A stretch of 64,000 nt of DNA from Escherichia phage BME3. The stretch's first letter is position 1; the number at the start of each line of letters is the position of its first letter. The notes under the pieces were generated by a model. That model saw nothing but the letters and a program-made list of their open reading frames with translations. It had not been told where the DNA came from and made no database searches. The stretch lies in the sequence record PP239276.1; one strand, given 5' to 3'. The translations under genes and the position numbers were made by a program. This document shows positions 10,077-63,395 of the stretch, piece after piece.

Positions 10077-10640
10077 ATGATATTTCACATAACTCCCTAT
10101 CTTTCTGGAGATATTGGAAAAGGTATCAATGACACAATAAGTGTCTTACCAGAAGATAGTTGGATTTGCCTAAGAGACATTGATACAATGTTTCTTCTTC
10201 CAGAACAACCTGCTTGGTTGGAATCAATAGTCCGTTCAAATCCTGATTTTGATGTTCTTGGTGCATCTTGTAATAGGTTGGGATCAACATATCAATTATT
10301 TAATAATGAAAGAAGTGAAGATCCAAATATATTACACCACATTGAGATTGCAAAAAGAGCACATCTAGAATGGGGGAACTCAATAGAGGAAGTACCTACA
10401 GATGCTATCTTAGCAGGATTCTTTCTTCTCTTTCGTAAGAGTCTGTGGAATGAAATCCCTTTTGAGGAAAGATCAATACAGTTTGATATAATTTTCTCTA
10501 AAGCATTACACGCTAACAATAAAAGGCTAGGTTTACTACGTGGGTTATATTTATTTCACACATACCGTTTAGGTAATGATGATCCTAGAAAAGCTGTTTC
10601 ACACCTTTTACATTGTCAAGACATGAATAAAATTATTTAA
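10077..10640 (+). CDS. putative glycosyltransferase (DxD-like motif)
   Basis: RDIDTMF motif; position at head of a glycosyltransferase block; weak. Confidence 0.35.
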   Translation: MIFHITPYLSGDIGKGINDTISVLPEDSWICLRDIDTMFLLPEQPAWLESIVRSNPDFDVLGASCNRLGSTYQLFNNERSEDPNILHHIEIAKRAHLEWGNSIEEVPTDAILAGFFLLFRKSLWNEIPFEERSIQFDIIFSKALHANNKRLGLLRGLYLFHTYRLGNDDPRKAVSHLLHCQDMNKII

Positions 10641-10649
10641 GGAGTTATT

Positions 10650-11336
10650 TTGGAAAATACAAAAATTGGTGTTGGTGTTATTACTGTAGGTAAGCGTCCT
10701 CTTAAAGATTATCTTGTGACTGATCCTAATGCTACTTTTGTTGTACAGTATGATCGGGAACGAAAAGGTGTTGCATATGCCCGTAATGAACTGATGAAAA
10801 AGTTTTATGATGAAGGGTATGATTACTGGTTTATCTTTGATGATGATTGCTATCCGGTTGTGCCAGGTTGGGAAACATATTTTGTAAAACAGGCTAAGGA
10901 AAATGGCTGGGATTTCTTTGGTATGCCTGAATACTTTAAAGATAAAGTAAAAGGTATTGAAGGTGAAGTGGTTATTTGGGAACTAGGCATGTGCCAGTTT
11001 GGTATGTATTCCCGTGCAGTTATTGAGAAAGCTGGCTATTTCCGTTCATACACCCACGGTTACGGATATGAAGATGCAGAGTGGATTCAGCGTGTTCCAC
11101 TGGCAGGTTTGAACCGAGGTATTCACGGCGTACCATGTCCTATTCGAATTATGGCGTTTATCCATCCTGACGATGTGTTTGGAGATAATCCTTTACCTTT
11201 TGCGAATCTGTCAAAAGAAGAGAAAGAACAGGGGATTGGTGTAAACTGGGAACAATATAAACAATCACTGGAGGATCTTCGCAATGGTAAAACTTTTATC
11301 TCTTATGAGGAGGCTCAAAAATATGGTAAATCCTAA
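10650..11336 (+). CDS. putative GT-A fold glycosyltransferase
   Basis: TTG start after AAGGAG; N-terminal IGVGVITVGKR and acidic DxD motif FIFDDDCYP. Confidence 0.45.
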   Translation: MENTKIGVGVITVGKRPLKDYLVTDPNATFVVQYDRERKGVAYARNELMKKFYDEGYDYWFIFDDDCYPVVPGWETYFVKQAKENGWDFFGMPEYFKDKVKGIEGEVVIWELGMCQFGMYSRAVIEKAGYFRSYTHGYGYEDAEWIQRVPLAGLNRGIHGVPCPIRIMAFIHPDDVFGDNPLPFANLSKEEKEQGIGVNWEQYKQSLEDLRNGKTFISYEEAQKYGKS

Positions 11337-12297
11337 TACTCCTGTACTTAAGTGTGATAATAAGTTAGGCAGTGGTTGTGATTACCATCGTATTGTAATG
11401 CCATTTGCGGGAAATACGTTTAAGCCTAAGAAAGACGTTTTAGTTTTTAATAGAGTGTATTCTCGTGGATCAGACGAAGTTAAACGCCTGAAGGCACAAG
11501 GTGTTAAGATTATTGTAGACTTAGATGATTTTTATTCACTTAACCCTGAACATTATATGGCTGGCGTATTTAGTAATCACTCAAAGACTATTGTAGAGAT
11601 GATTAAGTTAGCAGATGTTGTTACTGTGACAACAGAATACCTAGCTTACAAAATTCGTCATTTAAACCGTAATGTTGTCGTTATTAGAAACGCACTGCCT
11701 TACGACGAAGGTCAATTTACTTTGACAAAAGACCGTTATTCTGACACGCCTATTATTTGGGCTGGAGGGGCGAGCCATGAGCCTGACTTATCTCTTGTGG
11801 CTAATACATTTGATGATACACTATTGACAATTGCAGGGTATGAAGTGTATCCTTCTGCACCTGTTGGAAATAATAGTCAGTATCTAACTACTGCGGAGTG
11901 GGTTAAAGTCAAACGTAAAATTCCAAATGCACAGTATAAACCAGCTATTAAAAATTTAGGTGAGTATATGTCTGTGTATGACGGTCACAGTATTGCAATT
12001 GCTCCTCTGGTAGATAACGACTTCAACAACTGTAAAAGTAATTTGAAGATTTTGGAAGCAGGTGCAAAGGGTCTTCCTATTATCTGTTCTCCTGTGCTGC
12101 CGTACTTCAATCCGGTAGATGCAAAGGCTGTTATCTATGCAGATTCTAAAGCATCTTGGCATTATGAAGTTGTCAAGCTAATGAGGAACCCTAGATACAC
12201 AGAAGATCGTGGTATGATGCTTGCAGAACACGTTCGTCTTAATTATAATCTTGCAGATGCCAATGAACTGCGTCGTCAAGTTATTGAAAGTCTTTAA
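11323..12297 (+). CDS. putative GT-B fold glycosyltransferase (paralog 1)
   Basis: ATG at 11323 after GAGGAGG RBS; C-terminal KILEAGAKGLPIICSP resembles GT-B donor-binding motif; near-identical motifs to next gene. Confidence 0.5.
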   Translation: MVNPNTPVLKCDNKLGSGCDYHRIVMPFAGNTFKPKKDVLVFNRVYSRGSDEVKRLKAQGVKIIVDLDDFYSLNPEHYMAGVFSNHSKTIVEMIKLADVVTVTTEYLAYKIRHLNRNVVVIRNALPYDEGQFTLTKDRYSDTPIIWAGGASHEPDLSLVANTFDDTLLTIAGYEVYPSAPVGNNSQYLTTAEWVKVKRKIPNAQYKPAIKNLGEYMSVYDGHSIAIAPLVDNDFNNCKSNLKILEAGAKGLPIICSPVLPYFNPVDAKAVIYADSKASWHYEVVKLMRNPRYTEDRGMMLAEHVRLNYNLADANELRRQVIESL

Positions 12298-12308
12298 TAA
12301 GGAGCGAT

Positions 12309-13253
12309 ATGCCTAATATTATTCTTGACACACGCGGAAATGAAAAGTATAGTGTATGTGATTTTCATAGAATCATTTTGCCATATAAACGCAAGCTGAC
12401 CATTAATCCTAAGCATAATATTTTTGTGTTCAATGGAGTACCAACACGTGGGAAGCCAGGTTTCCTGGCTCTTAAACAACTTGGGTTTAAATTGGTAATG
12501 GATCTGGATGATTCTTTAATTATTCCTGAAGGGCATATGCTTGAAGGATTATTTGAAAATCAAATCCGAGATGACCTAAAATGGTTCCTTGAAAGAAGCG
12601 ATCTTGTAACTACAACAACTCCAGCATTAAAGGTTGAATTAAGCCAATACAATGATAATGTACATATTGTGCCTAACGGACTACCTTTTGATGAAGGACA
12701 GTTTGTTCTTACGAAAGATCGTTATTCTAAAAGTCCACTGGTTTGGGCGGGAAGTGAAACACATAAACATGATTTAGCTATTCTTCCTAGTTTTGGTAAA
12801 GATTTAACTTTATGTGGATTTCGTAGAGATCACGAAGAGTTAAGTAGTGCTCAATGGTTGCAAATTAAAGAAGATATTCAACCAGATTGTGTTTATGAAG
12901 GTATTCGTCCTTATGAGTGTTATATGGAAGCATACGATGGTCATCAAATCTCTATAGCTCCATTAGTAAATAATCATTTTAATAATGCCAAAAGTAATTT
13001 AAAAATTCTTGAAGCTGGTGCTAAAGGTTTGCCACTCGTTTGTTCACCACGAGAGAACTACTATACTGAAGAATTTAAAGATCTAATCTTCTTTGCTGAT
13101 TCAGTTAAAGAGTGGAAAGATATTGTAGAATACTTAATCGAATCTCCTGATGTTTGTATTGAGAAAGGATTGGCTCTTGCTAAGTATGTAAGAGATAACT
13201 ACAATATTGATGATTTAAATGAAACCCGCAGACTGCTTATCGAGGATTTATAA
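12309..13253 (+). CDS. putative GT-B fold glycosyltransferase (paralog 2)
   Basis: shares VFN, DLDD, VTTTT, VLTKDRYS and ISIAPLVNNxFNNxKSNLKILEAGAKGLP blocks with 11323-12297. Confidence 0.5.
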   Translation: MPNIILDTRGNEKYSVCDFHRIILPYKRKLTINPKHNIFVFNGVPTRGKPGFLALKQLGFKLVMDLDDSLIIPEGHMLEGLFENQIRDDLKWFLERSDLVTTTTPALKVELSQYNDNVHIVPNGLPFDEGQFVLTKDRYSKSPLVWAGSETHKHDLAILPSFGKDLTLCGFRRDHEELSSAQWLQIKEDIQPDCVYEGIRPYECYMEAYDGHQISIAPLVNNHFNNAKSNLKILEAGAKGLPLVCSPRENYYTEEFKDLIFFADSVKEWKDIVEYLIESPDVCIEKGLALAKYVRDNYNIDDLNETRRLLIEDL

Positions 13254-13534: not shown

Positions 13535-15307
13535 GTGTCTTATGTTGTAAATAAATATGGGTATAACATTGATCTAAGTCAAGAAGGACATACTGGGTGT
13601 CCTCGTTGTATGAAAGGAGGGCGTGATCGATCACAAAACAATTTGATGGTATATGGCTTAGATGCCGATGAAGACCATCGAGGCGCACATTGTTTTTCTT
13701 GTGGCTTTACTATCCCTGATCAAAAATGGTTAAATGCACACGGCGAAGAAATTGAAGAGGAGGATATCTTGGGTAGTGAGTTTAATCCAGAAGTACATGA
13801 TAAACTAAAAGCCAGCACTGGGACTAATCCAAAAGGTTATCGCGGTATTCGTGAAGATATCTCTAAGCCTTTCGGTGTACGCTATATGTACGATGAAGCT
13901 ACTGGCGAAGTAATTTCAACACTATACCCTACAACTAAAGATTACAATATTGCTGGGTATAAACAACGTATCGATCCAAAAGATTTTTCGCATCCTATCG
14001 GTGAAACAGGAAAGGATTGTGATCTTTTTGGGGAGTTTAAATATCGTAACCACAGCGGTACTATTCTAATCGTTGGTGGTGAACACGATATGCTGGCTGC
14101 AACACAGATGCTAAAAGATTATAACAAGGGTGGTAAATATCCTGTTCCTGCTGTAGTATCTGGTACTTGTGGCGAAACATCTCTGCATAAGCAGCTTCAA
14201 CATCGTTATAAATTCTTAGATCAATTTAAAAAGATTGTTCTGTGTATGGATAATGATGAAGCTGGACGTGCAGCAGTTGAGAAATGTGTTAAAATCTTAC
14301 CACGTAATAAAGTTTACGTGATGGAACTAACGGATGTTAAAGATCCTAACCAGGCACTAGTAGAAGGAAAAATTGATCACTTTCTTGATCGCTTTTTCAA
14401 AGCTAAACTGTACACACCTGCTGGTGTTTATGCTTCTAACGTACTGTATGAAGCAGCCTTGGAATGTCTGGAAGCTAAAATGATTACTCTTCCTCCATTC
14501 ATGCGTGTTGCTTCTAATATGTTAGGTGGAGGCTTGGTAGAAGAAGAAATTACTGTTATACTTGCAAAAACAAGTATTGGTAAGACACTGTTGGTTAACG
14601 AGATTACGAAACACATTATTCTTGCACACCCAGAACATACTCTTGGTATTTTATCTTTGGAGGCAACGTATAAGAAGTATTCTCGTAACTTACTGTCTTC
14701 ATTCTTGCACATCCCTCTTCACCGTAAAACAAAAGAAGAGAAGGAAAAGATTTTAAAAGATAATGAAGAAAAGATTCGTGATTTTTACGAACGGGAAGAT
14801 GGAACACCACGTTTCTATGTTTGTGATGATCGTGGAGCTAACGTAGATGTGATTAAAGAGAAGGTTCTGGAAATGATTATTTATTTCGGAGTAACCATTC
14901 TTGTTATCGACCCTTATTCTGACTTGCTTTCTGGTATGGACGTGTCACAACAAGAGGAACTTGCGACGTGGCTCAAACGCATTATGAAAGAGTACGCAAT
15001 CACCATTGTTGTAATTTCACACGTTAAAAAGTCTTCTAACAATAGTAATGAACATATTGTAGAAGATGATGCAATGGGTAGTAGCTTCCTTGCTAAAGGT
15101 GCTGGTATCACAATTGCGCTGGAGCGTGATAAACAAGCTGAAGATCCTATGGAACGTAACCGCACATATTGCTACATCCTAAAGAACCGTGAGTTCTCAG
15201 AGACTGGTGCAGCAGGTAGTTTCTTCTATGAGATTAAAACAGCGACACTTCACGATTACGATCAATACACAAGTAACCCAGAGAATATTCCTGATGGTTC
15301 TTATTAA
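13535..15307 (+). CDS. bifunctional DNA primase-helicase (T7 gp4-like)
   Basis: GTG start after AGGAGA; N-terminal zinc finger CPRC...CFSC; TOPRIM-like VLCMDNDEAGRAA; Walker A AKTSIGKT and Walker B VLVIDPYSD. Confidence 0.8.
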   Translation: MSYVVNKYGYNIDLSQEGHTGCPRCMKGGRDRSQNNLMVYGLDADEDHRGAHCFSCGFTIPDQKWLNAHGEEIEEEDILGSEFNPEVHDKLKASTGTNPKGYRGIREDISKPFGVRYMYDEATGEVISTLYPTTKDYNIAGYKQRIDPKDFSHPIGETGKDCDLFGEFKYRNHSGTILIVGGEHDMLAATQMLKDYNKGGKYPVPAVVSGTCGETSLHKQLQHRYKFLDQFKKIVLCMDNDEAGRAAVEKCVKILPRNKVYVMELTDVKDPNQALVEGKIDHFLDRFFKAKLYTPAGVYASNVLYEAALECLEAKMITLPPFMRVASNMLGGGLVEEEITVILAKTSIGKTLLVNEITKHIILAHPEHTLGILSLEATYKKYSRNLLSSFLHIPLHRKTKEEKEKILKDNEEKIRDFYEREDGTPRFYVCDDRGANVDVIKEKVLEMIIYFGVTILVIDPYSDLLSGMDVSQQEELATWLKRIMKEYAITIVVISHVKKSSNNSNEHIVEDDAMGSSFLAKGAGITIALERDKQAEDPMERNRTYCYILKNREFSETGAAGSFFYEIKTATLHDYDQYTSNPENIPDGSY

Positions 15308-15803: not shown

Positions 15804-18383
15804 ATGGGAGCTTTTACTTTCGACATTGAAAGTAACAACTTGCTTAATGACGAAAGTGTAGATTACTTGGCAAGTCCATATCGTTTAAAAGATAGTTTTG
15901 CAATGCACTGTATTGTGTGCGAAAGTCATGATACTGGAGAGATTATTGCTTTCCATGATGGTGATAAATATCTTTTCGATGGTCGTCCGTATGTTGAGAC
16001 TGACGGAAAGTATGAATACCGACTGGAGGAATATGAGCATTTAGAATATACCCATTTCCCTCTTAAAGATTTTCCTGATTTTGTAAATGGAACAGGTAAA
16101 TTTAAAGGTAATTCAAACTATAAAATTACCAAAGTAGTTGGACACAACATCATTAACTTCGACTTACTGGCAATTAAATTATTTTTTAAACTCAACTACA
16201 GTATTAAGTACAATACTTGGGGTAATAGTAACATTGAAATTTGTGATACTATGATCTTAAGTAAGACACTAAACCCTGATCGCTTCGGTGGTCATAGTCT
16301 GGCAGAGTTATCTAAGAAAGCTGGAGGGGATGTTAAAATTGATTTCAGAAAAAACATTCCTGAAACTGAAAGATTTAGAACATTTGCAGCAGATATGCTG
16401 TATTACTGTATTTACGATAACAAAGCTAACACCGCAGTGTTCCGTTATCTGATGGAAGAATGGGGTGATTATAGTAAGTGGTCTGAACCATTTAACTTAG
16501 AACAACGTGTAGCTGATATTATTACACGTCAAGAGCACCGTGGCTTTGCTTTCAATATGAAACAAGCAGAAGATAATATTCGTGATCTGGATGCTCGAAT
16601 GGAAGCATGTCGTTTAGAGGCAGAACCTGTACTACCTCCTAAACCTGCTACTAAAGGTTATTTGAAATCATTCATTCCACCTAAACTACAGTTTAAAAAG
16701 AATGGTGAACCTTCAAGTAACATGATAAAGTTTGCAGAGAAACATTCTGGTGAACTTGTACAAAAAGAAGATGGTTGGTGGTTATTTGCTTTAGGTAAAG
16801 AATTCAAACTCCCTATTCCAGCAGAAGAACCTATTTGTGATCCTACAGTACCTGCTACTTTAGACGACACTACACATATTAAAAACTGGTTAGTTGGTTT
16901 AGGTTGGAGTCCATCTGAATATAAAGATAAAGATATCACTCTTAAATCTGGCACTAAGATTAAGAAAGATGAAGCACAAATGGAGAAAGCTATTCGTGAC
17001 TATGTTGATCAAACATTAGCATCTAACTTCTGCCAGGATAGATGTGATCATCTGGAGTGCACACCAGAAACTTTGGAATGGAAACTAAGAGATCGTATTG
17101 CTAAAGCTAAAGGTCGTGGTGTTAAAGTGCTTACTAACCCTTCCTTTACAAAAGGGCAAGAGAAAGATATTTGTCCTAACTTGGAAGCACTAGGTGAAAA
17201 GTTTCCTTATGCTACGCAGATTGTGCAATATCTTACGTATAAACATCGTAGAAACTCTATTCTAGGTGGTGGTGCTGATTGGGAAGAAGATGAAGAGGAT
17301 TACGATAAAGGTTATCTGGCGGCAGTAAGGGCTGATGGTCGTATACCAACTCCTGCTGCAACGTGTGATGCAGCTACGTCTCGTATGAAACATAGGTTAG
17401 TAGCAAATATCCCACGTGTAACATCTCTGTACGGATATGAAATGCGTAACTTATTTGGTGTAGAAGTTCCAAAATACTTCCAGATTGGTTATGACTTCGA
17501 TTCTCTTGAAGCAAAAATAGAATCACACTACTGTTGGCGGTACGAGCAGGAGCCACACGAATATTGTAATGCTCTATTGTTGGAAAAACCTAATGATGTT
17601 CATACAATGATGGCTCGACGTATTTCTGACACTATTGGTCGTAAGTTTGAACGAAGCCCTGCTAAATCTGTTAAGTATGGTATTACCTATGGTGCTCAAG
17701 CTGCAAAAGTAGCAAAAACTATTGGTAGTGATATGTATACAGGACAGCTTGTATACGATGCTTTCTGGGAAGCTGCAAAACCTCTTGCGCTTCTTAAAGA
17801 ACGTCTGCATGATTTTTGGGTTAAAACAGGTAAGAAATACATTCTTGGTATTGATGGTAGAAAAGTACCTACACGATCTGCACACGCAATACTTAACTCT
17901 CTGTTCCAGAGTGGTGGTGTTATTTGTGCAAAAAGAGCAATGGTTATCTACGACGATCTTATCGAAGAAGAAGGATTAGCTGTTGACTTTTTTGTTGATG
18001 ACTGGAAAAATAAGTCATTCGTTCAACAAATGATTGCATATCACGATGAAGCACAGCTTGAAGTAACTCGTGATCTGGTGCATTTTAAATGGTTCTCTAA
18101 AGAATCTTTAGGTTGGACTCAAGTTGATGATCCAGAAGAACAAAAGAAAATTGATAAAGAATGTTTGGATAAAGTTAACGCCTGGAAAGAAGAGGAAGAG
18201 AAACGTACTGGCAAGATTTGGGCTAACGTACATGAATCTCCTAAAGGTGGTTGGTTTACAGCCTACAGTCGTGCTGGAGAATTAGCATCTATTGCTGTTA
18301 ATAAAGCTGGTGAGTATTACAATCTTAATGTACCTCTCACTGCTGGTTACGATGTTGGTAACTCATGGGCTAGTTGTCACTGA
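15804..18383 (+). CDS. family A DNA polymerase with 3'-5' exonuclease domain
   Basis: Exo motif FDIESNN at N-terminus; motif A-like DFDSLEAK, motif B RSPAKSVKYGITYG, motif C YHDE; TTAAGGAGGGAGA RBS. Confidence 0.85.
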   Translation: MGAFTFDIESNNLLNDESVDYLASPYRLKDSFAMHCIVCESHDTGEIIAFHDGDKYLFDGRPYVETDGKYEYRLEEYEHLEYTHFPLKDFPDFVNGTGKFKGNSNYKITKVVGHNIINFDLLAIKLFFKLNYSIKYNTWGNSNIEICDTMILSKTLNPDRFGGHSLAELSKKAGGDVKIDFRKNIPETERFRTFAADMLYYCIYDNKANTAVFRYLMEEWGDYSKWSEPFNLEQRVADIITRQEHRGFAFNMKQAEDNIRDLDARMEACRLEAEPVLPPKPATKGYLKSFIPPKLQFKKNGEPSSNMIKFAEKHSGELVQKEDGWWLFALGKEFKLPIPAEEPICDPTVPATLDDTTHIKNWLVGLGWSPSEYKDKDITLKSGTKIKKDEAQMEKAIRDYVDQTLASNFCQDRCDHLECTPETLEWKLRDRIAKAKGRGVKVLTNPSFTKGQEKDICPNLEALGEKFPYATQIVQYLTYKHRRNSILGGGADWEEDEEDYDKGYLAAVRADGRIPTPAATCDAATSRMKHRLVANIPRVTSLYGYEMRNLFGVEVPKYFQIGYDFDSLEAKIESHYCWRYEQEPHEYCNALLLEKPNDVHTMMARRISDTIGRKFERSPAKSVKYGITYGAQAAKVAKTIGSDMYTGQLVYDAFWEAAKPLALLKERLHDFWVKTGKKYILGIDGRKVPTRSAHAILNSLFQSGGVICAKRAMVIYDDLIEEEGLAVDFFVDDWKNKSFVQQMIAYHDEAQLEVTRDLVHFKWFSKESLGWTQVDDPEEQKKIDKECLDKVNAWKEEEEKRTGKIWANVHESPKGGWFTAYSRAGELASIAVNKAGEYYNLNVPLTAGYDVGNSWASCH

Positions 18384-18520
18384 CATCTCTTTGATTTTAA
18401 AGGAGTTTTTATGTGGGACAATCTGTTATTGCCAAGGTTGTTCCACACTTTTAAACCATTTCATAATTAGATGTTTGAACATCTAGAATAACGCAAAGAC
18501 CATAAGAGATAGGAGAAAAT

Positions 18521-19114
18521 ATGAATATTGAAGATCAAAAAGTACGAGCTTTAGAAGTATTACGTATGTGCCAACTGGTAGATCCGTTTGCAATTGTAGC
18601 TGGCGGCGCTGTACGTGACTGGCGATTAGAGAAACCTGCGCAAGATATTGATATTTACTTGCGTATGCCTAACCACAATACACTCGTACTAGTAGAGAAA
18701 TTTTTGATGTTGGGTGTTGGTGCACGTAATGTTAAACAACTTACTAAGCAAACAGAACACACTTATGCCGAACTACCACATTTGAAATGGGTATTTGAAG
18801 CATACTATAAAGACCTTAAATTTAATTTTATGATCATGGAAGAGGGTGTACGCAGTGAAATCGTATGGAACTTTGACGTAGCTATTTGCCTGTGTTACTG
18901 GGATGGTCAAAATTATGTATATCATCCAGATTTTGAATTTGCACTGAAAACTAATATTTGTACTATTAATCACCGATACACAGGTAAAGAAGCACACGTC
19001 CGTAAAATGGCAGAACGTTTCCCTATGTTCCGCTTTGTAAAAGACGTTTTCATTCCCAAAGAACCCGAAGTACGTACACTGGATTCATTTAACAACGAAG
19101 AATTTAAGATTTAA
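18521..19114 (+). CDS. Pol-beta superfamily nucleotidyltransferase with CCA-adding-enzyme-like head motif
   Basis: VAGGAVRDW ... QDIDIYL matches the GGxVRD / DxD signature of class II tRNA nucleotidyltransferases; only 197 aa. Confidence 0.5.
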   Translation: MNIEDQKVRALEVLRMCQLVDPFAIVAGGAVRDWRLEKPAQDIDIYLRMPNHNTLVLVEKFLMLGVGARNVKQLTKQTEHTYAELPHLKWVFEAYYKDLKFNFMIMEEGVRSEIVWNFDVAICLCYWDGQNYVYHPDFEFALKTNICTINHRYTGKEAHVRKMAERFPMFRFVKDVFIPKEPEVRTLDSFNNEEFKI

Positions 19115-19117
19115 GTG

Positions 19118-19147
19118 TTGACAAACATTATAATTATGTGTTATTAT
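19118..19147 (+). promoter_or_regulatory. sigma70-like promoter (TTGACA ... TATTAT)
   Basis: TTGACA at 19118-19123 followed 17-18 nt later by TTATTA/TATTAT. Confidence 0.4.
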
Positions 19148-19157
19148 GAGGACTTGA

Positions 19158-19556
19158 ATGACAGATAATCGTTCTAAAATCTTAGTCGAGACGTTCTATA
19201 GTAGAGAAACTAATCGTCTTGAGTTAACTAAAAAAGATGTTGAACCTCAAGATAATACCTTTTTTATTCAAATACTATGTCTCTTTGGTGGATACAACCG
19301 TTTAACAGTGAGAGTAGAAGACAAAGAGATATCTGAAACCACTATCACAAAACGTGAACTAATGCTATTACAGGACACAATACGAGATGTTTTGGATAAT
19401 CCTGGAAAAGCAAAAGTAATTAACCTTGGTGGAGAAAAGATACAAATTCTCCATTTTGAAAGTGGTGAAATAGGATTTGGTATTGGTCTTGGTAAATACC
19501 TGTTGGAAGAAACTGACGCTACTCTTTTACGAGAGTTTTGTGTTAAAGTAATGTAA
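19158..19556 (+). CDS. hypothetical protein
   Basis: 132 aa ORF. Confidence 0.5.
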   Translation: MTDNRSKILVETFYSRETNRLELTKKDVEPQDNTFFIQILCLFGGYNRLTVRVEDKEISETTITKRELMLLQDTIRDVLDNPGKAKVINLGGEKIQILHFESGEIGFGIGLGKYLLEETDATLLREFCVKVM

Positions 19557-19572
19557 TTATAGAGGAGAATTT

Positions 19573-20520
19573 ATGCCAGTAATTAATTCTGAAATCGACC
19601 GCCGTACTAAAAAAGAAGCATTCTGGGCTGAAGGTATTGTCGAATATGTCAAACTAGATAAGTTTGATGAAATGAAAGTCTCTTATATTAAGGTTGCAGG
19701 TCAACCAGATAAGAAAATTGAATCAACTCACAAAGCATCTCTGCTTATTAAAGAGAAAGGTGCTAGTGCTGATGATAAAGGTGTTTGGGTTAGCCTAGGT
19801 GAAGTTAAACTGCATCCAGAACATGAAAACCTGCAAGTTAAAGATGGTGACAAGTGGGTTACTATCGAAAAAGGTGTAGAACTAACTATGGATGTTAAAC
19901 CTTCTGAATGGAATGGCAAAACATACTACAATTCCTCTAAAGGTAAAATCACTATTCTTTCAACAGAAGGTGTTCAGCAAGCACAATCTTCTTCAAAAGG
20001 TGGAAATAAGCCATCTAATAACGAAGGTAGCAAGCCTAACTACAAAAAACGTGATACCGTAGGGATTGAAACAGGACACGCTGTAAATGGCGCTCTGGAG
20101 CTTCTACGTGCTGGTGTGAAAGGTGATGCTTTCGACTTGGCTGGTGTGGTACAATCTGCAACTGTTACTCTGAAAGCAGAAATTGCTAAAGATCGTGGTG
20201 TTGATGTGACTGATTATGATCTTGGTGCTTCAGTTGGACACGCAATTCTTAACGCTTGTCGTGATCATACAGGTAAGACTGTAACTGCAGAAGAGATTAT
20301 TGAAGCTGCTCGTGAAGTTCTTGCTTTGTCTGATAAAGTAGCTGCTGCTATCCGTGGAATGTCTACCCCAGTACAAGAAGTTAAGAAAGAAACTAAAAAA
20401 GTAGAGAAGAAAGAGCCAGCACCGAAAGAACCAGAACCTGTTGTTCAAGATTTCGATGATGATATCCCATTTGCTCCTATTGGTTTGCAGTATGGTCGAA
20501 ACTTCCTGCACTGTTTCTAA
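19573..20520 (+). CDS. putative ssDNA-binding protein
   Basis: acidic DFDDDIPF motif identical to the SSB C-terminal tail, but located 15 aa before the stop; AGAGGAGAATTT RBS. Confidence 0.45.
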   Translation: MPVINSEIDRRTKKEAFWAEGIVEYVKLDKFDEMKVSYIKVAGQPDKKIESTHKASLLIKEKGASADDKGVWVSLGEVKLHPEHENLQVKDGDKWVTIEKGVELTMDVKPSEWNGKTYYNSSKGKITILSTEGVQQAQSSSKGGNKPSNNEGSKPNYKKRDTVGIETGHAVNGALELLRAGVKGDAFDLAGVVQSATVTLKAEIAKDRGVDVTDYDLGASVGHAILNACRDHTGKTVTAEEIIEAAREVLALSDKVAAAIRGMSTPVQEVKKETKKVEKKEPAPKEPEPVVQDFDDDIPFAPIGLQYGRNFLHCF

Positions 20521-20580: not shown

Positions 20581-21312
20581 ATGAGCGAATTTGTAAACAA
20601 CACCGCATTAAACTACCTGCAAACCCTCGAAAGCAATAGTGTAGATTTGATTCTTACTGACCCACCATATGCTATTTCTCGTGACACAAATTTTCAGTCT
20701 GGAGAGCCTACTGGAAAAGATACGGATAGATTCCGTGTATCTTACAACTTTGGTGATTGGGATGTTGTAGATATTCCTTACTTTAAAGAAGTATTCAAAG
20801 AAGCCTACAGGGTGCTTAGAAAAGGTGGTACTTGCATAGTTTGGTATGATATCTGGAAGATCCAGGAGCTACGTGAAATCCTTGAACCGCTTGGTTTTCG
20901 TATGTTCCGTACTATTGAATGGATTAAAACAAACCCTGTACCCATCAACAGTGGTGTTAACTACCTTAGTAACGCTAAAGAAATGGCTATTGTTTGTGTT
21001 AAAGGTTCTAAGCCAACCTTCAATGCTTCCTACCATAAGGGTGTGTTTGAGTATCCTATCTATCAAGGAGCAGATCGTTTTCATCCAACACAAAAACACT
21101 TGACTTTGTTTTGTGACCTTATTAATATACACACCAACGAAGGAGATGTAGTCTTAGACTTCTTCTCTGGAAGTGCAACAACACAAGTTGCGGCACTTTT
21201 AACAGGTAGAGAATACTTAGGCTGCGAAGCCGATGTAAATATTTTTAAGCAAGCGGAGGAACGACTAAATGAGTACACTGAACAGCAAAATCACCCTGAA
21301 AGCACTGATTAA
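20581..21312 (+). CDS. DNA methyltransferase (beta-class, N6-adenine or N4-cytosine)
   Basis: catalytic LILTDPPY motif near N-terminus and AdoMet motif LDFFSGSATT near C-terminus. Confidence 0.75.
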   Translation: MSEFVNNTALNYLQTLESNSVDLILTDPPYAISRDTNFQSGEPTGKDTDRFRVSYNFGDWDVVDIPYFKEVFKEAYRVLRKGGTCIVWYDIWKIQELREILEPLGFRMFRTIEWIKTNPVPINSGVNYLSNAKEMAIVCVKGSKPTFNASYHKGVFEYPIYQGADRFHPTQKHLTLFCDLINIHTNEGDVVLDFFSGSATTQVAALLTGREYLGCEADVNIFKQAEERLNEYTEQQNHPESTD

Positions 21313-60598: not shown

Positions 60599-60695
60599 TG
60601 GCAGCAAGGTGAGGAATCGAACCCCTTGATCTATGGTTTGGAGCCATATTGAGTACCATACTCTTTTAAATCTACCCGGCTATGAGTTCCTTGAA
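60599..60695 (-). tRNA. tRNA-like, possible Trp(CCA); 5' half aberrant, 5' end uncertain
   Basis: CCA, acceptor 3' strand, T-loop AATCGAA and canonical anticodon arm with loop CUCCAAA; no matching 5' acceptor strand at expected distance. Confidence 0.3.
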
Positions 60696-60739
60696 GTGTC
60701 AATGTAACTTAATCATTACACCAGAAGGGAGGTATTTAT

Positions 60740-60818
60740 TGGAGGCGGGAGTAGGATTTGAACCTACGATCTCCAGCATATGAAACTGGCGAGGACGACC
60801 AGACTCCTCTATCCCGCG
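60740..60818 (-). tRNA. tRNA-Met/Ile2 (CAU), CCA encoded
   Basis: T-arm GTAGG-ATTTGAA-CCTAC, anticodon loop UUCAUAU, D arm with 11 nt loop, 1:72 mismatch. Confidence 0.6.
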
Positions 60819-60833
60819 CAATCTGTAGTAATT

Positions 60834-60909
60834 TGGTTGATAGTAAGAGAATCGAACTCTTCTCGCAATGCCTTATGAAAGCACTCGAAACGCCAGCTTC
60901 ACACTATCA
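60834..60909 (-). tRNA. tRNA, probable CAU anticodon, atypical anticodon-arm register
   Basis: perfect 7 bp acceptor and T-arm AAGAG-AATCGAA-CTCTT, CCA encoded; anticodon arm only folds with 6 nt variable loop. Confidence 0.45.
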
Positions 60910-60997
60910 ATGGCTAACCCTTTATAACCCGTCTTGGCGTGGTATCCTTAACAGGACGGTAGATATCCGTTGCAAACCCTATGATATCTCTTAGATA

Positions 60998-61082
60998 TGG
61001 TAGCTAAGGTGAGACTCGAACTCACAATCCCTTGGGGCAATACGTTCTAAGCGTATCGTGTATACCATTCCACCACTTAGCC
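60998..61082 (-). tRNA. tRNA-Leu (UAG), type II
   Basis: CCA, acceptor, T-arm GTGAG-ACTCGAA-CTCAC, 14 nt variable arm, anticodon loop CUUAGAA. Confidence 0.7.
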
Positions 61083-61158
61083 ATAAAAATACACCACTGT
61101 AAGAAGCCTCAATGTGCTATTGACAGTTAACCAAGTCTACTCCTTGGATGGTGATATT

Positions 61159-61233
61159 TGGTGCAGAGAGATGGTAACGATCCATCCTTTCTACCTTTTC
61201 AGGGTAGCACTAATCCGTCTCAGCTATCTCTGC
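61159..61233 (-). tRNA. tRNA-Phe (GAA)
   Basis: CCA, perfect acceptor, anticodon stem CTACC/GGTAG with loop CUGAAAA; non-canonical T-loop. Confidence 0.55.
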
Positions 61234-61238
61234 AAATT

Positions 61239-61314
61239 TGGTCAGTGCGGCAGGACTCGAACCTGCGACCTGAAGCGTCCAAGGCTCCCACGCTACCAAC
61301 TGCGCTACGCACTG
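61239..61314 (-). tRNA. tRNA-Pro (UGG)
   Basis: CCA, perfect acceptor, T-arm GCAGG-ACTCGAA-CCTGC, anticodon loop CUUGGAC. Confidence 0.7.
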
Positions 61315-61321
61315 TAAATCT

Positions 61322-61396
61322 TGGCTGGAGATCTAGGAATCGAACCTAGTCATCACGACTTCAAAGGCCGTTGCCTTCCCACTAGGCTAATCTCCA
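61322..61396 (-). tRNA. tRNA-Gln (UUG)
   Basis: CCA, perfect acceptor, T-arm CTAGG-AATCGAA-CCTAG, anticodon loop CUUUGAA. Confidence 0.7.
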
Positions 61397-61495
61397 ATAA
61401 AACTAAAAATCACTTAAAAAGAACCGCTAGAGTTTGAAGGAGAAAACCATGAGCGAAAAGAGAAATTTTCTCTAGCGATTCCATTTAAATAATCT

Positions 61496-61570
61496 TGGAG
61501 CGAGTAACAGGACTTGAACCTGCACCTGGAGGGTGGAAACCTCATATGCTACCATTAACACTATACCCGC
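61496..61570 (-). tRNA. tRNA-Gly (UCC)
   Basis: CCA, perfect acceptor, T-loop ACTTGAA, anticodon loop UUUCCAC. Confidence 0.6.
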
Positions 61571-61582
61571 TTAACAATATTA

Positions 61583-61611
61583 CTCTAACATATTATTAGC
61601 CCCTTTGTCAA
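61583..61611 (-). promoter_or_regulatory. minus-strand promoter upstream of tRNA block (TTGACAA - N16 - TTAGAG)
   Basis: reverse complement reads TTGACAAAGGGGCTAATAATATGTTAGAG; predicted start a few nt upstream of tRNA 5' end. Confidence 0.5.
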
Positions 61612-61625
61612 GAGGCTTTTGATAT

Positions 61626-61955
61626 TTATTTTAAAATAGTAGATGAACCACGTCTGTTTAGATATGCAATAGTAAAGTCCAAATCACCTATTTCTTCAGG
61701 TTCCCACTGACCTTCTAAGCCATAACAAGAACAATGATATGCGTGTACTTCATAAAACAAAGATGTTTTCATATCATAAAAATAAACGTGAGATTCACCT
61801 TCATAATATGCACAATCATAAGTGGCAGAAAGAATTACAATGTTATCCTTATCTAACTCTACTTCATAATATCTTTCAACATCTTCAATATGATCAAAAC
61901 CATCGAAAACATTGATATTAAAATATTTCTCTAACTCTTTTTCTGTCACATACAC
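61626..61955 (-). CDS. hypothetical protein embedded in tRNA region
   Basis: 109 aa ORF between tRNA genes. Confidence 0.5.
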   Translation of the reverse strand: MYVTEKELEKYFNINVFDGFDHIEDVERYYEVELDKDNIVILSATYDCAYYEGESHVYFYDMKTSLFYEVHAYHCSCYGLEGQWEPEEIGDLDFTIAYLNRRGSSTILK

Positions 61956-61972
61956 TCCTTTAGAGTTAAAAT

Positions 61973-62047
61973 TGGTGCTCCCACAAGGACTCGAACCCTG
62001 ATAAGTTGCTTACAAGGCAACCGTAATAGCCGTTATACGATAGGAGC
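61973..62047 (-). tRNA. tRNA-Thr (UGU)
   Basis: CCA, acceptor with G-U pairs, T-loop ACTCGAA, anticodon stem GTTGC/GCAAC loop CUUGUAA. Confidence 0.65.
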
Positions 62048-62053
62048 AATACT

Positions 62054-62130
62054 TGGACTCGACAGGATTCGATACCTGCAATTCCAGAAGCCTCTTGGCG
62101 ACTGGGGGTTTACCTTAACTCTACAAGTCC
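62054..62130 (-). tRNA. tRNA-like, atypical (8-nt T-loop, unresolved anticodon arm)
   Basis: 7 bp acceptor pairing 62055-62061 with 62124-62130; T-arm folds only with 8-nt loop ATTCGATA. Confidence 0.3.
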
Positions 62131-62137
62131 ATAATTC

Positions 62138-62222
62138 TGGCGATGGATCAAGGATTTGAACCTTGCTAGAACTTTCGTTCACGGATTAACAGTCCGTCGC
62201 CCAACCACTAGGCCAATCCATC
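62138..62222 (-). tRNA. type II tRNA whose anticodon reads GUU
   Basis: CCA, perfect acceptor, T-arm CAAGG-ATTTGAA-CCTTG, variable-arm hairpin GAAC-TTTC-GTTC, anticodon stem ACGGA/TCCGT loop CUGUUAA. Confidence 0.5.
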
Positions 62223-62229
62223 TTTAATT

Positions 62230-62316
62230 TGGTGCAGGTAGTTGGACTCGAACCAACGAAGCCCAGAAGGGCAAGAGATTTACAGTCTCCAGCAATTGCC
62301 GCTATGCGATACCTAC
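62230..62316 (-). tRNA. tRNA-Tyr (GUA), type II
   Basis: CCA, perfect acceptor, T-arm GTTGG-ACTCGAA-CCAAC, 16 nt variable arm, anticodon loop CUGUAAA. Confidence 0.7.
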
Positions 62317-62321
62317 GTGTT

Positions 62322-62397
62322 TGGTACATCGTGAAGGATTCGAACCTTCGACCTTGGAGTTAAAAGCCCCTTGCTCTACCAACTAAGCTAACGATGT
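62322..62397 (-). tRNA. tRNA-Lys (UUU)
   Basis: CCA, perfect acceptor, T-arm GAAGG-ATTCGAA-CCTTC, anticodon loop CUUUUAA. Confidence 0.65.
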
Positions 62398-62522
62398 ATA
62401 AATTATCTTTAAAATAGCCAGTGTTTGCGGCACTTGACTATGGGATATCGGTAAGATGGTGGGGCCATCTGCCGAAAGTTTACTCTGTTAAAGTAAGATG
62501 ACAAGCTACATTAAAGATAACT

Positions 62523-62608
62523 TGGCGGTAGATGTAGGACTTGAACCTACACGCCGTTTCCGACGACAGTTTAGCAAACTGTTGTGGCTACCATTTCACC
62601 AATCTACC
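62523..62608 (-). tRNA. tRNA-Ser (GCU), type II
   Basis: CCA, perfect acceptor, T-arm GTAGG-ACTTGAA-CCTAC, long variable arm, anticodon stem ACAGT/ACTGT loop UUGCUAA. Confidence 0.7.
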
Positions 62609-62616
62609 GTTCTTAA

Positions 62617-62769
62617 TTATTCAAAACAACCGGAATCTTTTTGTTCTGCTTTTACCATACGAATATTTTTACCATCTTCAGATTGTTGAAGATTAGAATA
62701 CTCATAAATAACTTTATTATCTACAATCTTAACTCCGGTAACAACCTGTCCAATAGTTTTATAATTCAT
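62617..62769 (-). CDS. hypothetical small protein
   Basis: internal ATG at 62769 with AGGAGC RBS; track ORF to 62817 would overlap the next tRNA. Confidence 0.35.
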   Translation of the reverse strand: MNYKTIGQVVTGVKIVDNKVIYEYSNLQQSEDGKNIRMVKAEQKDSGCFE

Positions 62770-62787
62770 AAAGCTCCTAGTTGAATT

Positions 62788-62877
62788 TGGAGGAAGATAA
62801 TGGAGTCGAACCATCACCGTATCGCTACAATGGGCCAGGGTTCAAACCTGGTTGCGCACCGCTGCGCCCTACCTTCC
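62788..62877 (-). tRNA. tRNA-Ser (UGA), type II
   Basis: CCA, acceptor, T-loop AGTCGAA, 19 nt variable arm, anticodon stem CCAGG/CCTGG loop UUUGAAC. Confidence 0.65.
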
Positions 62878-62893
62878 CGTTATCATACTTTAA

Positions 62894-62922
62894 ATCTAAC
62901 ATAAAACTATGTTGCTTGTCAA
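62894..62922 (-). promoter_or_regulatory. minus-strand promoter (TTGACAA - 17 nt - TTAGAT)
   Basis: reverse complement reads TTGACAAGCAACATAGTTTTATGTTAGAT, about 15 nt upstream of tRNA 5' end. Confidence 0.5.
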
Positions 62923-62940
62923 GTAGTTTTTAAAACTTTT

Positions 62941-63022
62941 TGGCCGGGGTGACAGGATTCGAACCTGCATACTCCAATTACTCGGTTAACGCCTGATTAG
63001 AAGTCAGGTGAGATACACCCCG
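62941..63022 (-). tRNA. tRNA-like with Arg(UCU) anticodon arm, apparently lacking a normal D arm
   Basis: CCA, perfect GC-rich 7 bp acceptor, T-arm ACAGG-ATTCGAA-CCTGC, anticodon stem CCTGA/TCAGG loop CUUCUAA; only 7 nt between anticodon stem and 5' acceptor strand. Confidence 0.4.
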
Positions 63023-63092
63023 TTTTCACAGTAACTATAACAAAAAACTAAGTAAATGTCAAGATATTTTTTACTAAATTGCTATTTAAATT

Positions 63093-63165
63093 GAAGCCTA
63101 GTTATGGAATCGAACCATATTTCGTATTTAGTTAGACAAAGCGATCTAACATATTTTTCAGGCTT
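63093..63165 (-). tRNA. tRNA-like, atypical (no encoded CCA; internal hairpin has 8-nt loop)
   Basis: perfect T-arm TATGG-AATCGAA-CCATA; 7 bp acceptor possible only with 2-nt offset. Confidence 0.35.
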
Positions 63166-63202
63166 TGATGGCCTCGGAATTACCAAATACCCTACCAGGC
63201 GT

Positions 63203-63288
63203 TGGTGCAAGTGGAGGGATTCGAACCCTCAATCATTTAAGCGTTGCGTTTTAAGCACAATGTGTATCACCAATTCCACCACACTTGC
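63203..63288 (-). tRNA. tRNA-Leu (UAA), type II
   Basis: CCA, perfect acceptor, T-arm GAGGG-ATTCGAA-CCCTC, 13 nt variable arm, anticodon loop CUUAAAA. Confidence 0.7.
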
Positions 63289-63319
63289 ATATAGGAGATG
63301 CATAGCACCTCCTTTTAAA

Positions 63320-63395
63320 TGGTGGTTCCCCAGGGTTACAATCCCTGCCCTCGACACTTATGAGGTGTGCGCTCTCGTCAGTGAGCTATGGAACC
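63320..63395 (-). tRNA. tRNA-Met/Ile2 (CAU)
   Basis: CCA, 6 bp acceptor, D stem GCTC/GAGC, anticodon loop CUCAUAA, T-stem CAGGG/CCCTG with non-canonical loop. Confidence 0.55.

Follow-up and report, generated by a model that had tools for sequence, protein, structure and literature searches.

The 64,000-nucleotide stretch of Escherichia phage BME3 analysed here (sequence record PP239276.1; ‘the window’ below means the whole of that stretch) encodes a protein of 197 amino acids (aa) that we assign, with high confidence, to the stand-alone, single-domain nucleotidyltransferases (NTases) of the polymerase beta (Pol-beta) fold, with a catalytic head of the class II type, membership in the Gad2 superfamily and a gene located among those of the phage replisome. 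At the level of sequence, no characterised proteins are closer to it than the N-terminal catalytic domains of Gad2. The clade to which it belongs is large and phage-specific (~190 aa, signature AGGA[PV]RDW...DxD, phrog_1614, contained within Pfam family PF26128), and its genes typically lie on the same strand as, and between or next to, the genes for a primase-helicase and a family-A DNA polymerase. Annotation alone does not make it obvious that this is a minimal relative of Gad2 whose gene is embedded in a replication module.

A first-pass annotation of the window, made from its letters alone, had drawn attention to a 197-aa open reading frame (ORF) containing the motifs GGAVRDW and DIDIYL. 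That ORF is present at positions 18521–19114 on the plus strand and begins with an ATG codon, and the pattern GG[AS]xRD-x(5-12)-DxD occurs a single time in the six-frame translation of the window.

Sequence relationship to Gad2

Gad2 is the second Gabija anti-defence protein described by Yirmiya et al. Deletion of the 400-aa Gad2 of phage SPbetaL7 leaves that phage sensitive to Gabija, expression of the same protein is toxic, and a 394-aa homologue from a Brevibacillus laterosporus prophage abolishes Gabija defence when co-expressed with it; an NTase domain was predicted in Gad2 by AlphaFold, and the authors' list of homologues includes single-domain members of 214 and 228 aa (bioRxiv 10.1101/2023.05.01.538930). 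The other Gabija inhibitor in that study, Gad1, acts by binding (bioRxiv 10.1101/2023.05.01.538930).

A precomputed match to the Pfam model for Gad2 (PF26128, E ≤ 1e-5) is recorded for the exact NTase of the window, for a 99%-identical representative (P0001) and for many of its relatives. In database copies that do not contain the Gad2 model, the verified Gad2 itself had no Pfam match and no relevant NCBIfam match. We therefore relied on direct comparisons with a test set consisting of the verified sequence and six homologues taken from Supplementary Table 10 of Yirmiya et al. BLASTP of the window NTase against the verified B. laterosporus Gad2 gave an E value of 1e-5 (24% identity over 117 aa). 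Alignment of a profile of the window family by hhalign gave a probability of 95.6% against the verified Gad2 (E = 1.1e-8, 113 columns) and of 97.7% against a profile of all seven Gad2 sequences (E = 1.5e-12, 116 columns). As a yardstick, the same test returned just 64% for the poly(A) polymerase I of Escherichia coli (PAP I; 52 columns) and 12.8% for the E. coli CCA-adding enzyme (Cca; 24 columns).

The window NTase and Gad2 have in common an AGG turn, a DxD-(Y/F) strand, an F-D-x-x-x-C segment (NFDVAIC in the window, FDFTVC in Gad2, where F106, D107 and T109 are invariant), a Gln or Asn on the strand that follows the hairpin (N102 in the window, IQLIH in Gad2) and, within the last helix, a basic residue that is conserved; both are encoded by phages. 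They differ in the glycine motif, which reads GG(T/A)ITS in Gad2 and GGAxRDW in the window clade; one of the short homologues listed for Gad2 carries GGSLRD...DVDVFF and so bridges both variants.

The Gad2 profile also formed a weak but long alignment with PAP I (E = 0.002, 176 columns), in which FDFTV of Gad2 lies on the motif B sequence RRDFTI, YP--VVSALRVQKY lies on the motif D sequence EDPVRMLRAVRF (the E-D being missing from Gad2), and LRVQKY is aligned to MLRAVRF of PAP I. Judged by eye, K162 of the window NTase appears to be equivalent to these last-helix residues of Gad2 and PAP I. A sequence search of Gad2 against the PDB with the tools used for the window family gave no match. Since the window family does match CCA-adding enzymes in that search (see below), the window clade is the more CCA/PAP-like relative of Gad2.

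Family conservation and catalytic competence

In the PHROGs database the window NTase matched phrog_1614 (‘nucleotidyltransferase’) over its full length (E = 2e-34). A word-indexed search with the window NTase alone returned 2 proteins, and an exhaustive HMMER search over 1.84 billion representatives and a search with an alignment as query were used in its place. At E ≤ 1e-3 the HMMER search identified 997 clusters, of which 280 reached E ≤ 1e-10. Family members are nearly all 175–220 aa in length (median ~200 aa) and match residues 1–175 of the window NTase; its small size is therefore the norm of the family and not a truncation. Relatives in the BFVD collection superimpose on it with template modelling (TM) scores of 0.77–0.80.

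Column conservation was read from alignments of 74, 92 and 138 members that share 20–50% identity. Residues G28, G29, D42 and D44 are invariant, with both aspartates unchanged in 138/138, 92/92 and 74/74 sequences, while Q6, A10, A27, A30, R32, D33, W34, Y82 and K162 are each at least 90% conserved (96% for K162). F118 (87%), C123 (75%), the Gln/Asn at position 102 and the pair F167-P168 are also strongly conserved. The commonest form of the glycine motif is AGGAPRDW, found in 102 of the 138 members. The window NTase fits this ‘AGGA[PV]RDW’ group of small phage NTases in its full-length match, in its size and in its conserved residues. Given the PHROGs match, the 997 clusters and the invariance of the motif residues, the GGAVRDW/DxD match did not arise by chance.

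Two departures from the usual architecture were seen among the relatives. Gene product 223 of Vibrio phage ICP1 (L012 3959-4378; BFVD F1D1P7) is a truncated member of 137–139 aa that matches just residues 3–126 and lacks the C-terminal helices bearing the conserved lysine; it is kept across many ICP1 isolates. Three other members (P0029, P0060 and P0109) are 310–400 aa long, with extensions of 90–210 residues preceding the NTase domain, which is the reverse of the arrangement in Gad2, whose extra region is C-terminal.

The window NTase is probably an active nucleotide-transferring enzyme, a prediction that follows from the invariance of the DxD pair and GG turn and from the conservation of R32, D33 and K162 in more than 90% of members. 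Less clear-cut is the third carboxylate of the active site, for which the candidate columns are acidic in 69% (E93), 4% (Q/N102) and 22% (D119) of the family; the window NTase has both E93 and D119. In a manual alignment, N102 appears to correspond to the Glu of the ‘YEVTTF’ strand of the Bacillus stearothermophilus enzyme. A third catalytic carboxylate that is not conserved might be expected of a catalytically dead scaffold, which would perform no chemistry and act by binding a host factor and blocking it, and Gad1 does work by binding; we nevertheless consider such a scaffold exceedingly improbable, because a GG turn and DxD pair that are invariant across ~140 sequences of 20–50% identity, together with R32, D33 and K162 at more than 90%, form the pattern that selection on an active site should produce.

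Predicted fold and comparison with CCA-adding enzymes

An AlphaFold2 model of the window NTase, built from the alignment of 74 sequences, had a mean predicted local distance difference test score of 90.1 and a predicted TM score of 0.83, and was poor only in the last ~20 residues. In a Foldseek search of the PDB with this model, the 38 best matches were class II CCA-, CC- and A-adding enzymes and E. coli PAP I (E values from 2.7e-5, TM scores 0.53–0.56, ~180 columns). The predicted fold is that of a Pol-beta head domain, and the lack of any NTase fold, which the first-pass annotation had named as a result that would speak against it, was not what we obtained. In alignments with 6ibp, 4x4w, E. 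coli Cca and PAP I, GGAVRDW and DID (aa 42–44) coincide with motif A, GGAVRDW falling on GGAVRD in the CCA-adding enzymes and on GGGVRD in PAP I. The class II GGxVRD/DxD signature read in the first pass therefore holds for motif A, and its estimate that the protein is about half the size of a CCA-adding enzyme was right, E. coli Cca having 412 aa and the window NTase 197.

Sequence similarity to the class II enzymes is limited to ~24–52 residues around motif A (in the search of the family profile against the PDB, 41 residues aligned to CCA enzymes at E = 0.015). A comparison with the PolyA_pol model, suggested in the first pass, gave 19.1 bits for PF01743, under the gathering threshold of 23, and just 13 of the 74 relatives matched that model at E ≤ 0.01. 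Against the NCBIfam equivalog for CCA-adding enzymes (NF009814) the window NTase scored 15 bits, where the cutoff is 290.

Class II CCA-adding enzymes are proteins of ~370–450 aa in which motif B (RRD) mediates ribose recognition, motif D (EDxxR) is an amino-acid template that selects CTP or ATP, and body and tail domains bind the tRNA. The motif B segment of the window NTase reads W-N-F-D instead of RRD, so that the Asp is retained and both arginines are absent, and its column 119 is Asp in just 22% of the family. The segment corresponding to motif D reads E-A-H-V-R, is located at the last helix of the model (158–166) and is variable in the family at columns 157 (D/E/H) and 161 (K/Q/T). Body and tail domains are absent from the window NTase, whose model stops after the first neck helices; relative to the CCA/PAP enzymes it is half as long and has no body, tail or leg domain for RNA binding. 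With the RR of motif B, the EDxxR motif and the tRNA-measuring body and tail all missing, we would not expect the enzyme to build CCA on tRNA.

These results bear on the proposal of the first-pass annotation that the protein is a miniature CCA-adding or tRNA 3′-end repair enzyme, acting on phage tRNAs or on tRNAs damaged by host nucleases. The motif A signature and the head-domain fold fit such an enzyme, the label ‘putative tRNA nucleotidyl transferase/poly(A) polymerase’ is in use in GenBank, and the window contains 16 tRNA genes. The motifs that direct CCA synthesis are absent from the window NTase and are not conserved in its family, its scores fall below the thresholds for PolyA_pol and for CCA-adding enzymes, and Cca is already present in E. 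coli. The tRNA genes (three for tRNA-Met(cat), two each for Leu and Ser among them) form a cluster at 60518–63395 on the minus strand, 41 kb from the NTase gene and on the opposite strand to it; a Vibrio podovirus of the Zobellviridae with a genome of 46.9 kb encodes a family member and has no tRNA gene at all; and a tRNA gene was found within 6 kb of the NTase gene in just 4 of the 60 related viral loci scanned. We therefore reject the suggested link between the NTase and the tRNA cluster, and with motif A as the only conserved class II motif we consider a role in tRNA repair or CCA addition very unlikely. What survives of the first-pass interpretation is its alternative, a different Pol-beta NTase role, and the nearest characterised relatives are Gad2 proteins.

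The sole context that hints at RNA repair, and thus at the tRNA-directed role just described, is a 131-kb contig (L004; 1-3898, 6001-6585) that has been binned into a metagenome-assembled genome of Microgenomates and whose gene content is phage-like. Its family member lies 2–5 kb downstream of an RNA-repair set made up of genes for an RNA ligase, an RlaP nucleotidyltransferase and a KTI12/AAA_33 kinase-like protein that resembles polynucleotide kinase.

Genomic context

The window NTase gene occupies a module in the order primase/helicase, DNA polymerase, NTase, 132-aa ORF, single-strand DNA-binding protein (SSB)-like protein and DNA methyltransferase (Table 1). In G+C content (37.4%) it matches the window (38.1%).

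Table 1. Coordinates of the nucleotidyltransferase gene, its motifs and the surrounding genes in the window
Feature	Position	Strand	Basis or remark
Gene for 197-aa stand-alone NTase (phrog_1614; Pfam PF26128, ‘Gad2’ family)	18521..19114, stop codon within	+	ORF list, PHROG, precomputed Pfam
Shine-Dalgarno sequence AGGAG	18511..18515	+	5 nt ahead of the NTase ATG; direct sequence reading
GGAVRDW (aa 28-34), active-site glycine turn and helix; first half of motif A	18602..18622	+	
DIDIYL (aa 42-47), DxD pair, predicted metal-binding catalytic aspartates, strand 43-48	18644..18661	+	
NFDVAIC (aa 117-123), counterpart of Gad2 FDFTVC and class II motif B RRDFTIN	18869..18889	+	
EAHVRK (aa 157-162), last helix, at the position of class II motif D (EDxxR)	18989..19006	+	
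Primase/helicase gene	13535..15307	+	Annotation in phage Eryne; Toprim_2 and DnaB_C
Gene for a family-A DNA polymerase, directly upstream of that for the NTase	15804..18383	+	Annotated in relatives; PF00476
132-aa ORF (phrog_16560)	19158..19556	+	No Pfam or PADLOC match; function unassigned
315-aa protein, single-strand DNA-binding protein by annotation in relatives	19573..20520	+	phrog_4477
N6/N4 DNA methyltransferase	20581..21312	+	PF01555

We called and clustered the ORFs of 80 IMG/VR loci that contain a family member and identified their recurrent neighbours, nearly all of which share the strand of the NTase gene. A gp4-type primase-helicase (Toprim and DnaB_C domains) is present in 51 of the 80 loci, with its end at a median of 628 bp upstream of the NTase gene, and a family-A DNA polymerase (DNA_pol_A) in 39, with its start at a median of 585 bp downstream. 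Homing endonucleases of the HNH_3/AP2 type (25/80), flap endonucleases (10/80), the SSB-like protein of the window (9/80) and ATP-dependent DNA ligases (6/80) recur less often. The order DNA polymerase, small ORFs, NTase, ~131-aa ORF and ~300-aa ORF is found in Phapecoctavirus and in a Pseudomonas myovirus, whose NTases are 35–37% identical to that of the window. In further contexts the gene lies beside a DNA methyltransferase gene, or beside ThyX and a split polymerase.

Some features of the module itself were also recorded. A perfect palindrome (AGATGTT-TG-AACATCT, 18469–18484, plus strand) is located 37 nt 5′ of the NTase start and abuts a weak −10-like sequence, TAGAAT; a protein might bind at this palindrome, or it might form a small hairpin. 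A promoter and terminator scan around the NTase gene found no terminator and, upstream, just one weak promoter-like site (9/12 matches), and promoter-like sites in the region are no commoner than in shuffled sequence (overall they are fewer). A near-consensus sigma-70 promoter (19118–19147, plus strand; TTGACA, an 18-nt spacer, TATTAT and a TG extension, 11/12 matches) begins 4 nt past the NTase stop codon, and the 132-aa ORF therefore appears to have its own promoter. This ORF always adjoins the NTase gene in Stephanstirmvirinae-like phages and in a Pseudomonas myovirus, and could be a functional partner of the NTase. The idea that it represents a detached C-terminal part of Gad2 was rejected (hhalign probability 1.1%). 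Some close relatives (L096 2896-3492; NC_052655, phage alia; OZ035770) have an extra ORF of ~198 aa, annotated as an HNH endonuclease, between the DNA polymerase and NTase genes, which is absent from the window. Directly upstream of the primase/helicase gene, four consecutive ORFs (187, 228, 337 and 314 aa; 10077–13253, plus strand) correspond to four ‘glycosyltransferase’ genes of phage Eryne, and their putative products might have DNA or the sugars of the host surface as substrates.

Other small nucleotidyltransferases

Small stand-alone NTases with a CCA/PAP head are common in viruses. BFVD contains 133 matches at E ≤ 1e-3, including proteins of ~165–215 aa from phages of Pectobacterium, Dickeya, Providencia, Pseudomonas, Caulobacter and Vibrio, and published work mentions such proteins but does not study their function (PMC7693777). 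Several of them are distinct from the window clade in sequence. The Streptococcus pneumoniae protein NP_344798.1 (PDB 2la3, 191 aa), a stand-alone ‘CCA-adding enzyme head domain’ protein, and the small NTases of the T7-like phages Pectobacterium PP2 and DU_PP_II, Dickeya Ninurta, Providencia PS3 and Klebsiella fHe-Kpn01 (Gp22) have no similarity to the clade by tblastn. Several of these head-domain and T7-like proteins, under the name ‘Poly A polymerase head domain-containing protein’, match Pfam PolyA_pol directly, whereas the window clade stays below the threshold. The toxic T7-like NTases (fHe-Kpn01 Gp22, Emajogi gp22 and Pectobacterium PP47 gp28) were likewise rejected as sequence relatives, as tblastn with two different family members retrieved the same 195 records, with none of those T7-like phages among them. 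No such NTase gene was present in the region of phage KP34 that was read.

These comparisons are relevant to a possible role in host takeover, in which the window protein would be a toxin-like RNA NTase that extends the acceptor ends of host tRNAs or tails host RNAs, with shutdown of host translation or faster decay of host RNA as the outcome. The chemistry has precedents: MenT/AbiEii toxins add nucleotides to tRNA acceptor ends, and poly(A) polymerase I tails RNAs. MenT/AbiEii toxins are distant structural neighbours only, however, and the window NTase has no antitoxin-like partner and lies in a phage replication module; a PADLOC search gave no match to AbiEii, MenT or any defence NTase at E ≤ 1. 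The toxic T7-like proteins are just structural neighbours as well (TM scores 0.55–0.65, with no relationship by tblastn), and the window NTase is not basic (isoelectric point 6.3) and is not linked to tRNA genes. We regard this role as quite improbable.

Proposed role

Homology to Gad2 and co-expression with the replisome make counter-defence the most likely role of the window NTase, and by analogy we tentatively favour a Gad2-type function of this kind. The enzyme would bind NTP-Mg2+ (NTP, nucleoside triphosphate) through the GG turn, R32/D33, D42/D44 and K162, and would then transfer a nucleotidyl group to a hydroxyl acceptor. The leading candidate for that acceptor is a nucleic-acid (polynucleotide) 3′-OH, since all of the closest structural relatives are polynucleotide 3′-end transferases. 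Through such a modification, linear phage DNA might be shielded, while it replicates, from a nuclease-helicase system of the Gabija type. Gabija itself is proposed, in a 2025 preprint, to act on linear DNA ends devoid of RecBCD and to block circularisation (PMC12407980). A more specific proposal sees the clade as the minimal catalytic core of the Gad2 superfamily, with a CCA/PAP-type motif A still in place, and as a widespread enzyme of replication modules. By nucleotidylating a nucleic-acid 3′ end, either of phage DNA or of a tRNA, it would neutralise Gabija or another immunity of the OLD-family or helicase-nuclease kind. This proposal is in our estimate somewhat unlikely as it stands. Transfer RNA is included as a possible acceptor on the grounds that OLD-family nucleases are now reported to cut tRNAs.

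The replisome setting can also be explained by an accessory function in replication that is unrelated to immunity, with a template-independent 3′-end NTase working alongside the primase-helicase and polymerase, for example by adding tails or caps to DNA ends or RNA primers when concatemers form or ends are processed. To our knowledge, an enzyme of this kind is not required by any phage replisome. Between primase-helicase and polymerase there are often accessory genes and homing endonucleases (in 25 of the 80 loci, those of the HNH_3/AP2 type), and the nearest characterised relative of the window NTase is an anti-defence protein. In the Autographiviridae, small NTases of a related class are sporadic, being present in 37 of 46 Pectobacterium phages but in 60 of the other phages, which number more than 500 (PMC7693777); a distribution of this kind suits host-specific accessory genes better. 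For these reasons we consider a purely replicative function unlikely.

Several observations weigh against a counter-defence role for the window NTase. Its conserved syntenic replisome context fits an accessory function in replication at least as well. The verified Gad2 proteins lie in a variable anti-defence locus of SPbeta-like phages (bioRxiv 10.1101/2023.05.01.538930), unlike the window gene with its place in a conserved syntenic replication module, and a review of February 2026 states that the mechanism of Gad2 has not been elucidated (PMC12904381). Several of the 80 loci are near-duplicates, and the related loci are not phylogenetically independent. The near-neutral window NTase is without an obvious nucleic-acid-binding extension, and 33 of the 138 aligned members have no acidic residue at any of the candidate positions for the third carboxylate. 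The verified Gad2 proteins, at 394–400 aa, have an extra C-terminal region of ~230 aa that the window NTase lacks, and they and their short homologues fall in phrog_18122, phrog_27100 and phrog_4400, whereas the window NTase falls in phrog_1614. Cross-matches between these groups are weak (Gad2 to phrog_1614 at E values of 1e-6 to 1e-8, and the window NTase to phrog_4400 at 7.5e-4). In view of the absent C-terminal region, the different PHROGs and the weak cross-matches, we place the window clade as a sister of the Gad2 clade that has been tested.

Existing annotation and significance

Myoviruses of E. coli that resemble phi92 (Justusliebigvirus, Stephanstirmvirinae), phi92 among them, share 98% identity with the region. 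Proteins 99–100% identical to the window NTase have been deposited in dozens of records, and the exact protein is present in 472 blocks of a public assembly collection. Identical and near-identical proteins are labelled ‘nucleotidyltransferase’, ‘putative tRNA nucleotidyl transferase/poly(A) polymerase’ or ‘hypothetical protein’. The window NTase is thus a protein of a known kind, already deposited, annotated and placed in PHROG and Pfam families. The label ‘tRNA nucleotidyltransferase/poly(A) polymerase’ on its relatives is unsupported by evidence, and the present analysis corrects this recurring annotation.

As a sequence feature the window NTase is ordinary, and its value is as a lead on how Gad2, among the few enzymatic Gabija inhibitors, works; Gabija is a very common defence system. 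Our comparisons show that the catalytic domain of Gad2 descends from the class II CCA/PAP head, that a domain of this type can stand alone, and that in many phage lineages it is wired into a block of replisome genes and not into an anti-defence island. Together these three points narrow the plausible acceptors to polynucleotide 3′ ends. A 197-aa protein compatible with E. coli is a convenient handle for the biochemistry of a Gad2-type mechanism. If the clade does represent a minimal core of the Gad2 superfamily and acts as in the more specific proposal above, that mechanism would become directly testable in E. coli, and about 1000 phage protein clusters would gain a function.

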